DNA of 64,000 nt from Escherichia coli (GCF_003334355.1 NZ_QOWP01000006.1); one strand, 5' to 3'; positions 33,047-63,092 are shown, counted from the first letter of the stretch. The notes: a model not told the origin generated them from the sequence alone. A program made the numbers and translations.

Positions 33047-33103
33047 GTACGTCATTGCGGATGCGCTGCTTTAGGGCGGCGCATTTGGCATCGACGCATG
33101 ACT

Positions 33104-33238
33104 GCCGGATGCGGCGTGAACGCCTTATCCGGCCTACGGTTCAGGCACAAGTTTGTAGGCCTGATAAGACGGGTAAGCGTCGCATCAGGCAATGGTGCTC
33201 GGATGCCGGATGCGGCGTGAACGCCTTATCCGGCCTAC
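33104..33238. repeat. BIME cluster: three REP units in alternating orientation between copA and ybaQ
   Basis: GCCGGATGCGGCGTGAACGCCTTATCCGGCCTAC twice, flanking an inverted GTAGGCCTGATAAGACGGGTAAGCGTCGCATCAGGC. Confidence 0.85.
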
Positions 33239-33260
33239 GAGATGAAGCGATGTTTTGGCC

Positions 33261-57309: not shown

Positions 57310-60462
<3,153 letters not shown>

Positions 60463-60480
60463 TACAACGTGTAATCACTA

Positions 60481-60504
60481 AGGCCGCGTAAGCGGCCTTT
60501 TTTA
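60481..60504 (+). terminator. acrAB rho-independent terminator
   Basis: AGGCCGC-GTAA-GCGGCCT followed by TTTTTT. Confidence 0.85.
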
Positions 60505-61007
60505 TGCATAACCTACGAACATTAAGGAGTAATTGAACCACCAACTCAGGATCTCATACGAAAACCAGTATTAACCACGGATAAAATTCATAAAAAATAC
60601 TGATTGTTAGTTAATTTATATTAAGTAGCGCTAATAGATTTAATAATCCATAATCATTTAGAGGCTATTCTTAATTATTTGCGGTAATTCTTTATTCATT
60701 CCTCGGTTATTACGTCATATTCAGAGCAATCCTGGTATTAGTGTCACCAATTTCATCTGGCGATAATCCTGAAATGTTATGAATAGTTCGAGCAAACTGC
60801 TTTTACCTGCTGCGGGTTAGTGCTAGTATGAAAAAGTGAGTCCTGTCCCGCTTCCTTCCTAATTGTAATTTTTCGTAATAATGCGATGAAAACCTGCAAA
60901 GAGTGGCTTATAGTTAAGCTAACAAACGAGAGGGCAAGTCCAGGTCAGTAAGTTTTTTCCATCCCGAAAGGTGTCCGTTAGTTCAACCGCTAAGAAGGGG
61001 ACGCGTT

Positions 61008-61382
61008 ATGGATGAATACTCACCCAAAAGACATGATATCGCACAGCTTAAGTTTCTCTGTGAAACCCTGTATCATGACTGCCTTGCAAACCTTGAAGAA
61101 AGCAATCATGGCTGGGTAAACGACCCAACCTCGGCGATCAACCTCCAGTTGAATGAACTGATTGAGCATATTGCGACCTTCGCACTTAATTACAAAATTA
61201 AGTATAATGAAGACAATAAGCTCATTGAGCAGATCGACGAATATCTGGATGACACCTTTATGTTGTTCAGTAGTTATGGTATTAATATGCAGGATCTTCA
61301 GAAATGGCGGAAGTCAGGTAATCGACTATTCCGTTGTTTTGTCAATGCGACGAAAGAGAATCCTGCGAGTTTATCTTGTTAG
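61008..61382 (+). CDS. tomB: Hha toxicity modulator TomB/YbaJ (124 aa)
   Basis: 124-aa [34 protein letters not shown]... directly upstream of hha. Confidence 0.93.
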
Positions 61383-61407
61383 AATTATTACAACCATGGG
61401 TAGAAGT

Positions 61408-61626
61408 ATGTCCGAAAAACCTTTAACGAAAACCGATTATTTAATGCGTTTACGTCGTTGCCAGACAATTGACACGCTGGAGCGTGTTATCGAGAAAAAT
61501 AAATACGAATTATCAGATAATGAACTGGCGGTATTTTACTCAGCCGCAGATCACCGCCTCGCCGAATTGACCATGAATAAACTGTACGACAAGATCCCTT
61601 CCTCAGTTTGGAAATTTATTCGCTAA
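61408..61626 (+). CDS. hha: Hemolysin expression modulator Hha (72 aa)
   Basis: ATG 61408 encodes [72 protein letters not shown]. Confidence 0.95.
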
Positions 61627-61797
61627 TAAATAATTCGCTTTCGGAGCTATAACCGGCTGTTTATTAAGAATTTTATACTTTTTCGCCATGAAGACATACC
61701 CTATGTGATCTTTATCACACAGATGTAATGGGAACGTTCTCTTCACTGACTTTTCGTCTTACTGTGTTGCCGCATTTTCAGCAACCGGAGGTCAGTA

Positions 61798-62349
61798 ATG
61801 AGCACAGAAAAAGAAAAGATGATTGCTGGTGAGTTGTATCGCTCGGCAGATGAGACGTTATCTCGCGATCGCCTGCGCGCTCGTCAGCTTATTCACCGAT
61901 ACAATCATTCCCTGGCGGAAGAGCACACATTACGCCAGCAAATTCTCGCTGATCTATTCGGTCAGGTGACAGAGGCTTATATTGAGCCAACGTTTCGCTG
62001 TGACTATGGCTATAACATTTTTCTCGGTAATAATTTTTTCGCCAACTTCGATTGCGTGATGCTTGATGTCTGCCCTATTCGCATCGGTGATAACTGTATG
62101 TTGGCACCAGGCGTTCATATCTACACGGCAACACATCCCATCGACCCTGTAGCACGTAATAGCGGTGCTGAACTGGGGAAACCCGTCACCATCGGTAATA
62201 ACGTCTGGATTGGCGGACGCGCGGTCATTAACCCTGGTGTGACCATTGGTGATAACGTCGTGGTAGCCTCAGGTGCAGTTGTCACAAAAGATGTCCCGGA
62301 CAACGTTGTCGTGGGCGGTAATCCAGCCAGAATAATTAAAAAATTGTAA
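61798..62349 (+). CDS. maa: Maltose O-acetyltransferase Maa (183 aa)
   Basis: Hexapeptide-repeat left-handed beta-helix acetyltransferase ORF. Confidence 0.93.
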
Positions 62350-62464
62350 TCGGTTTTTCGCAACTGTTATGCAAAATTGTGGTAGATCTGTTACTTCCCC
62401 TCTACTATTCCCACGTTAAAATAGGGTGTTCCCTGGAAAGTTGCAGATACCACGAAGGCAAACG

Positions 62465-62935
62465 ATGACCGAAATACAACGCCTGCTGACCGAAACGATT
62501 GAGTCTCTGAATACCCGCGAAAAACGCGACAACAAACCCCGCTTTAGTATCAGTTTTATCCGTAAACATCCGGGGCTGTTTATCGGTATGTACGTTGCTT
62601 TTTTTGCCACCCTGGCGGTGATGTTGCAGTCCGAAACGCTGTCAGGCTCTGTCTGGCTACTGGTTGTATTATTTATCCTGCTTAATGGTTTCTTCTTTTT
62701 CGATGTCTACCCACGCTACCGCTATGAAGATATCGACGTGCTGGATTTCCGCGTTTGCTATAACGGCGAATGGTACAACACGCGCTTTGTACCTGCCGCG
62801 CTGGTTGAAGCCATCTTGAACTCTCCGCGTGTCGCGGATGTTCATAAGGAACAACTGCAAAAAATGATCGTCCGTAAAGGTGAACTGTCTTTTTACGATA
62901 TTTTTACCCTCGCTCGCGCCGAATCAACATCTTAA
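62465..62935 (+). CDS. ylaC: Inner-membrane protein YlaC (156 aa)
   Basis: ORF contains [27 protein letters not shown]...; start trimmed to give 156 aa. Confidence 0.8.
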
Positions 62936-63092
62936 GTTAGGGTTACATACCAGGCGTAAAGCTCTGCGCCTGGTCAAATGACAATGATCGTTTCCACCCA
63001 TCACTTCATGAAATACCAGCTCTACCTCCTTATCTCCAGCCAGCCTTTTTCCACAATCAGATATACTTTCCCTACACTGTGTTAATAAGGAT

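Follow-up and report, generated by a model that had tools for sequence, protein, structure and literature searches.

How is transcription of the tomB-hha operon of Escherichia coli started and controlled, and what is the role of the long DNA segment in front of it? In the 64,000-nucleotide stretch analyzed here, referred to as the window, this operon encodes the H-NS co-repressor Hha and its modulator TomB, and follows acrB after a spacer of 545 bp (60463–61007). The initial annotation placed the two genes behind an AT-rich leader of about 0.5 kb, typical of H-NS-silenced regulatory DNA. We find that the leader is short and that the DNA upstream of it is mostly untranscribed. The explanation that we favor, and regard as quite likely as a whole, combines a terminator behind acrB, a promoter with a short leader, a CpxR-type box next to this promoter, and an AT-rich islet that binds H-NS.

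The evidence for the short leader comes from a published map of transcription start sites (TSSs). Kim 2012 analyzed primary transcripts by a modified rapid amplification of 5′ cDNA ends with sequencing (5′RACE-seq). The supplement of that study lists a single E. coli tomB TSS at position 480019 of NC_000913.2, minus strand, with 53 reads and a 5′ untranslated region (UTR) of 87 nt. The upstream string given for this TSS, TTTCGTAATAATGCGATGAAAACCTGCAAAGAGTGGCTTATAGTTAAGCTA, corresponds to positions 60871–60921 of the window, and the start itself to the A at 60921. No further TSS is listed in the spacer on either strand. Our consensus scan chose the promoter ATGAAA-17-TATAGT independently of the published TSS, and Shimada 2014 lists the same hexamers as a constitutive RpoD (sigma-70) promoter of tomB-hha. 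A TomB scan provided 80 loci, spread over more than 20 Enterobacteriaceae genera; 76 of these loci reach far enough upstream for comparison, and the two hexamers are kept in these 76 species. The elements around the start and a second promoter closer to hha are the following.

60865–60879, + strand: CpxR-type direct repeat GTAAT-TTTTC-GTAAT, centered at −49 and abutting the −35 hexamer (pattern, conservation)
60886–60914, + strand: tomB-hha sigma-70 promoter ATGAAA-17-TATAGT (promoter scan, published TSS, constitutive promoter list, conservation)
60921–61007, + strand: tomB 5′UTR, 87 nt (published TSS, footprints)
61377–61392, + strand: hha-proximal promoter with the extended −10 element TGTTAGAAT, TSS at 61392 and a 16-nt UTR (Kim 2012; sequence checked)

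With the start at 60921, the leader measures 87 nt instead of 0.5 kb, and the long leader of the initial annotation has to be abandoned. Data from related species point in the same direction. The orthologous TSS in Klebsiella (Kim 2012) follows the same hexamers, with a UTR of 97 nt and 151 reads. In a green fluorescent protein (GFP) assay in Salmonella, the promoter-proximal p922 was active, whereas no activity came from p201 and p622, which had been predicted at sites further upstream. The Yersinia homologue ymoBA has two TSSs, located 188 and 106 nt (TSS2) before the start codon.

The mapped TSS and the conserved promoter upstream of tomB also support co-transcription of both genes, though this is not the sole route to hha. 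Kim 2012 lists two hha TSSs, at 61392 (in the tomB-hha gap) and at 61293 (inside tomB, 115-nt UTR), with 16 and 12 reads, so that transcription of hha without tomB is possible. Such separate transcription could shift the toxin-to-modulator ratio. The read count of the tomB TSS is similar to those of the acrA promoters (47 and 61) in this data set. Thus tomB-hha is transcribed from one sigma-70 promoter (60886–60914) with its start at 60921, and hha has two weaker starts of its own.

The best-conserved non-coding stretch, TTGTAATTTTTCGTAAT, is essentially invariant in the 76 species and contains the CpxR-type repeat. According to RegulonDB, the targets of CpxR include both tomB and hha, and the CpxR iModulon contains tomB. 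In Yersinia, CpxR~P binds the ymoBA promoter in electrophoretic mobility shift assays and activates it in a reporter assay, with a site about 56 bp upstream of TSS2. Since the CpxR pattern is common in the window, support for this box derives from its conservation, its position and this literature. Judging from conservation and the published data, the predicted repeat next to the −35 hexamer would make the tomB promoter responsive to envelope stress.

The short UTR contains an invariant CCAUCCC element (60959–60965) and the Shine-Dalgarno (SD) sequence GAAGGGGA (60994–61001). The CCAUCCC element is complementary to the SD (GGGGAU in most genera) and to the start (AUGGA), at 60994–61010, and could act as a predicted anti-SD element; because both sides of this pairing are invariant, covariation cannot test it. 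A structured leader or riboregulator was considered and rejected. A search of Rfam over 59500–63000 gave no match at E ≤ 1, and the fold of the UTR is not more stable than those of its shuffled versions (z = −0.19). RNAalifold on 22 genera returned only the invariant CCAUCCC/SD pairing, with no covariation. One of nine RNA pairs predicted from the 22-genus alignment shows a double change, and this pair is located in the coding part; compensatory changes in the leader were absent across these genera.

We then compared the entire spacer between species. As a near-neutral baseline we used the third codon positions of acrB, tomB and hha, which are 0.54–0.60 identical to the window in species outside Escherichia. 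Footprints were defined as sequences above the 95th percentile of this synonymous-site baseline. In all 76 species whose locus extends that far, acrB lies upstream of tomB, the spacer measures 435–559 bp with a GC content of 35–40%, and tomB and hha are 23–28 bp apart. Inside the spacer, identity to the window varies strongly.

60513–60572: Escherichia-only segment, identity 0.006, absent outside Escherichia and variable between Escherichia species
60573–60732: AT-rich tract, identity 0.46
60733–60852: middle block, identity 0.30, evolving faster than synonymous sites
60853–60920: promoter block, identity 0.72
60921–61007: UTR block, identity 0.66
60478–60504, 60599–60607, 60615–60622, 60721–60735, 60858–60897 and 60900–60919: footprints upstream of the UTR
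60954–60968, 60972–60979 and 60989–61007: footprints in the UTR, the last covering the Shine-Dalgarno region
60480–60505, + strand: acrB intrinsic terminator with an 8-bp GC-rich stem, a GUAA loop and a U-run (terminator scan, folding, conservation)
60599–60622, no strand: two short conserved islands (ACTGATTGT, TTTATATT) at −322 to −299 (footprint, alignment)
60642–60647, + strand: upstream −10-like hexamer, AATAAT here and TATAAT in most genera (alignment)
60721–60734, + strand: RcsAB-box-like palindrome at −200 to −187 (cross-species match, fixed distance)

In the upstream DNA, most of the sequence is replaced between species, yet length and composition are retained. The hexamer at 60642–60647 probably corresponds to the Salmonella p622 that was silent in the GFP assay. 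The first footprint belongs to the acrB terminator. Its hairpin (60480–60499) is followed by a T-run and has a folding energy of −18.8 kcal/mol (z = −4.26 against shuffled sequences), and the footprint 60478–60504 is kept across genera, with a pairwise identity of 0.80 versus 0.61 at third codon positions. Transcription of acrAB ends at this strong terminator (60480–60505), which insulates tomB.

The composition of the spacer is as unusual as its length. By length it ranks second of about 48 spacers in the window (median about 128 bp; gene coordinates over the first 44 kb are approximate in this ranking). Its GC content is 37.8%, compared to 51.8% for the whole window and 49.1% for all window spacers pooled. 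The AT-richness is distributed unevenly: it is extreme at 60505–60780, whereas GC reaches about 43% at 60780–61007, where promoter and UTR are located. The most AT-rich 200 bp of the 64-kb window are found at 60581–60780 (GC 28%), and the 220 bp at 60505–60724 reach 70% AT and 13.7% TpA (median 4.1%), values that each rank among the highest 0.1% in the window. Together with tomB, hha and the spacer between hha and maa, the DNA in front of tomB forms a low-GC islet of 1.3 kb (60463–61797, GC 39.1%). Three compositional features need to be distinguished; for two of them the evidence includes H-NS binding data from genomic SELEX (systematic evolution of ligands by exponential enrichment) or from chromatin affinity precipitation with sequencing (ChAP-seq).

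60505–60780, no strand: extreme AT/TpA-rich tract, candidate H-NS nucleation or binding DNA (composition; SELEX mark on the spacer)
60506–60580, no strand: Escherichia-only, fast-evolving, single-copy segment (alignment; genome search)
61627–61797, no strand: hha-maa spacer, AT-rich, downstream end of the low-GC islet (composition; ChAP-seq)

The tract at 60505–60780 evolves at or below the neutral baseline save for short islands, and is untranscribed from the mapped promoter. Open reading frames (ORFs) in the spacer are chance ones of at most 40 codons. A tblastx comparison with 72 other species produced matches in all six frames equally, and this lack of frame preference indicates a spacer without coding signature. 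These composition, ORF and tblastx checks bear out the description in the initial annotation of a long, AT-rich and ORF-free stretch behind the acrB terminator. The Escherichia-only segment (60506–60580) occurs once per genome in 5424 genomes, carries no annotated feature, and in 785 genomes is only 90–95% identical. A repeat or mobile element was rejected as its origin on the basis of this single-copy occurrence. Within this segment, which directly follows the acrB terminator, an AAGGAG motif precedes a non-conserved ORF of 13 codons starting with TTG.

Does H-NS act on this DNA? The extreme AT and TpA content of the spacer fits the preference of H-NS. Shimada 2014 marks the acrB/tomB spacer as "HNS" in genomic SELEX, an in vitro method. 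In vivo, the ChAP-seq tables of Higashi 2016 examined here show hha, maa and the maa-hha spacer as H-NS-bound, and acrA and ylaC as negative. Since the acrB-tomB spacer itself is not in those tables, its occupancy rests on the in vitro SELEX and on the flanking in vivo signal. The claim of H-NS-silenced DNA was therefore right in one part, in that H-NS binding is reported by both methods, and overstated in the other, given a constitutive promoter with reads like those of acrA. Of the two observations that the initial annotation named as refuting it, the short leader is borne out by TSS mapping, and a lack of H-NS occupancy is not, since binding is reported. Because the operon is expressed in exponential growth, it is better described as H-NS-bound or modulated than as silent. 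The wording "H-NS-bound and possibly modulated" is supported, and exponential-phase activity argues against full silencing.

In the mechanism that we propose, the roughly 380 bp from terminator to promoter would be untranscribed, sequence-labile DNA that stays long and AT/TpA-rich. On the strength of conservation and the literature, this DNA and the low-GC tract of tomB, hha and maa may together form a 1.3-kb AT-rich islet that binds H-NS. Since Hha is itself an H-NS co-repressor, Hha and H-NS on their own islet could restrain the operon by negative feedback.

Several observations weigh against this explanation. The CpxR pattern (GTAAA-N5-GTAAA) at two mismatches matches the window 69 times and is not significant alone, and tomB is not among the direct targets found in E. 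coli by CpxR chromatin immunoprecipitation with exonuclease digestion (ChIP-exo). The TSS data stem from exponential growth only, so that condition-specific upstream promoters may exist. Neither tomB nor the acrB-tomB spacer appears in the in vivo H-NS tables of Higashi 2016 examined here, and the literature searched contained no H-NS effect on tomB-hha expression and no derepression in an hns mutant. As to the curvature suggested as a check by the initial annotation, A-tract phasing is weak (AA/TT periodicity of 10.5 bp, p ~0.04) and A-tract counts are unexceptional. The spacer contains one match with two mismatches to TCGATAAATT, the Lang-type high-affinity H-NS motif, a density no higher than that of the window.

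These observations leave room for other explanations. A far-upstream promoter near 60642–60647 could produce a genuine long leader of about 360 nt, AT-rich and with regulatory signals, under conditions that the TSS mapping did not sample; loss of H-NS, stationary phase and envelope stress are candidates. AT-rich DNA does abound in promoter-like sequences, most genera keep a −10-like TATAAT at this very position, a low-resolution SELEX peak of RpoS holoenzyme lies near the acrB end of the spacer, Yersinia ymoBA uses two TSSs, and the available TSS data are restricted to exponential phase. We nevertheless consider a long leader improbable, since Kim 2012 reports no TSS there in E. coli or Klebsiella, the p201 and p622 fragments are inactive in Salmonella, 60733–60852 outpaces synonymous sites in evolution, and the region has neither an Rfam match nor a coding signature. 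A hidden gene, either for a small protein or for a small RNA, is more improbable still. The spacer is unusually long and contains chance ORFs of 10–40 codons, such as the 13-codon TTG ORF at 60533–60574 behind AAGGAG. This ORF, however, sits in the variable segment that only Escherichia carries, tblastx to other genera shows no frame preference, Rfam has no match at E ≤ 1, no TSS is reported on either strand, and the RefSeq annotation of K-12 places no feature there. A small ORF was rejected on the basis of the chance ORFs and the six-frame tblastx matches.

The spacer may also be passive: a remnant, evolving neutrally, of an old insertion of low-GC DNA that carried tomB-hha. H-NS binding would then be incidental to composition and without effect on expression, and the functional part would consist only of the proximal 70 bp and the UTR. 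We judge this unlikely because length (435–559 bp) and GC content (35–40%) are held in 76 species and more than 20 genera despite sequence turnover, and because several islands are conserved beyond the neutral baseline and keep a fixed distance to tomB, for example the palindrome, at 313–335 bp in most species. What speaks for a passive spacer is that most of 60505–60852 is no better conserved than third codon positions, that the entire islet (60463–61797) is low in GC, that H-NS-bound spacers generally evolve fast, and that a transposon insertion in the acrB-tomB spacer is tolerated and even selected. In the tables of Higashi 2016 examined here, the column on horizontally transferred genes assigns the code "L/n" to hha and "x" or "n" to most genes, a possible sign of such an insertion.

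The preferred reading, a short-leader promoter downstream of H-NS-binding DNA, can be extended by the conserved islands. The 14-nt consensus of the RcsAB box is TaAGaatatTCcta (PMC4325325). The palindrome in E. coli, TCAGAGCAATCCTG, agrees at 9 of 14 positions and keeps the capitalized core T, AG and TC, but is degenerate and not above chance alone. Most other genera read TA[A/G]GAATATTCCT[A/G] at the island 60721–60735. A sequence with at most three mismatches to the consensus occurs in 68 of the 76 species (at most two mismatches in 53), and in the spacers the density of matches of this type is 114 times that in the flanks. The distance to the tomB start is 306–335 bp in nearly all species with a match, with exceptions of 237 bp (three species) and 381 bp (one). 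The literature searched contained no report of a link between Rcs and tomB(-hha). We regard the RcsAB-like site as a prediction for the family, and a weak one for this window. Neither the CpxR nor the RcsB pattern stands above chance in E. coli alone; what supports them is conservation across species.

The short upstream islands, including the palindrome, are probably additional operator sites. We would go further only tentatively: it is conceivable, if doubtful, that the spacer is a conserved multi-input control region with a CpxR box, an operator of the RcsAB/RcsB type and maybe an H-NS-silenced promoter near 60650. In such an arrangement, the Rcs operator would lie about 190 bp before the TSS, near consensus in most Enterobacteriaceae and decaying in Escherichia. 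If true, the amount of the co-repressor Hha would depend on two envelope-stress pathways, Cpx and Rcs, together with feedback by H-NS/Hha; known biology would be extended only modestly.

The identity of the genes raises no doubt. The locus is the chromosomal tomB-hha operon of E. coli, downstream of acrAB in its conserved position.

57313–60462, + strand: acrB, resistance-nodulation-division (RND) efflux permease (ORF list; RefSeq annotation of K-12 and ATCC 8739)
61008–61382, + strand: tomB, YbaJ family, Hha toxicity modulator (Pfam PF10757, K-12 identity, RefSeq)
61408–61626, + strand: hha, Hha/YmoA family H-NS co-repressor, the "toxin" of the pair (Pfam PF05321, K-12 identity)
61798–62349, + strand: maa, the gene downstream of hha

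The initial annotation had described tomB and hha as adjacent, co-directional genes that encode the known Hha/TomB pair, and the coordinates agree, with a gap of exactly 25 bp. In Pfam searches, TomB matches PF10757 (YbaJ) with E = 1.1e-65, and residues 13–69 of Hha match PF05321 (HHA) with E = 9.5e-40. The tomB DNA shows no differences from K-12, and the Hha protein is likewise the same. Relief of Hha toxicity by TomB is reported for the K-12 proteins, which are identical to those encoded here. Cys18, which PMC5155140 reports to be oxidized with help from TomB, is present in this Hha. The 1261 bases around the locus are 100% identical to ATCC 8739 and were found in 5425 of 5426 complete E. 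coli genomes; the acrB-tomB spacer is single-copy and identical to that of K-12 MG1655 over 545 of 545 bases. Operon, gene identity and the Hha/TomB pair are already known and ordinary, and the accepted picture of them is unchanged.

Hha tunes the silencing by H-NS of horizontally acquired and virulence genes, and TomB controls the activity of Hha, so that regulation of this operon matters for biofilm formation, persistence and virulence. The present analysis corrects the long-leader reading and locates the promoter, the CpxR-type box and a few conserved islands precisely. It also describes upstream DNA of which length and composition are kept and sequence is not.

Some strains deviate at this locus and elsewhere in the window. 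In about 27 of the 5426 genomes, the locus is not matched over its full length. The one disrupted genome examined was that of E. coli Br_112_kylling (NZ_CP182371.1), in which a deletion extends from the 3′ end of acrB through the spacer and tomB into the 5′ end of hha, leaving a truncated acrB and a shorter hha. The copA-ybaQ spacer (33103–33239, 137 bp) has six further matches in ATCC 8739, 101 bp apart and 93–96% identical, which indicates that the copy number of a repeat array varies between strains; Tandem Repeats Finder (TRF) detected no array of this repeat in the window itself. By comparison of positions 1–44000 with K-12 and ATCC 8739, allC in the window is free of the IS5 insertion present in the ATCC 8739 record, and the rhsD region located between ybbP and selU in K-12 appears to be absent. 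These two differences point to a third strain background, closest to ATCC 8739 (99.93% over the last 20 kb).

Among known systems, the closest is the K-12 tomB-hha operon (b0461-b0460), an oxygen-dependent toxin-antitoxin pair with the same gene order, 25-bp gap, promoter and mapped TSS. Two single-nucleotide polymorphisms distinguish the window from K-12 in 61383–61802, one at 61398 and the other synonymous. The G at 61398 (A in K-12) gives rise to an ATG that lies 12 nt before the annotated start of hha, in the same frame, and would add MGRS to the protein if used.

The likeness to riboswitches, attenuators and thermosensors is superficial and limited to a long ORF-free stretch before the start codon; unlike these elements, the tomB leader is 87 nt long and shows no Rfam match, no folding signal (z = −0.19) and no compensatory changes. 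Another comparison is with H-NS regions of the proU/bgl type. Here as there, AT/TpA-rich tracts flank a less AT-rich promoter (28–31% GC at 60505–60780, about 43% at the promoter and 35.5% at 61188–61387), and H-NS binding is reported. In contrast to that type, tomB-hha is active during exponential growth and has a promoter classed as constitutive, and phased A-tract curvature is weak.

The relatives in other genera differ from the operon described here in three respects. Escherichia, unlike other genera, has about 70 additional bp behind the terminator. The RcsAB-like palindrome is near consensus in Salmonella, Enterobacter, Klebsiella and Kluyvera and degenerate in Escherichia, and Yersinia has a second TSS at −188, where none is reported for E. 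coli. Close to the genes, the architecture is shared: Yersinia ymoB-ymoA and the tomB(ybaJ)-hha operons of Salmonella and Klebsiella are the same two-gene operon, with a promoter about 80–110 nt before the first gene and, as here, a CpxR motif just upstream of this promoter.

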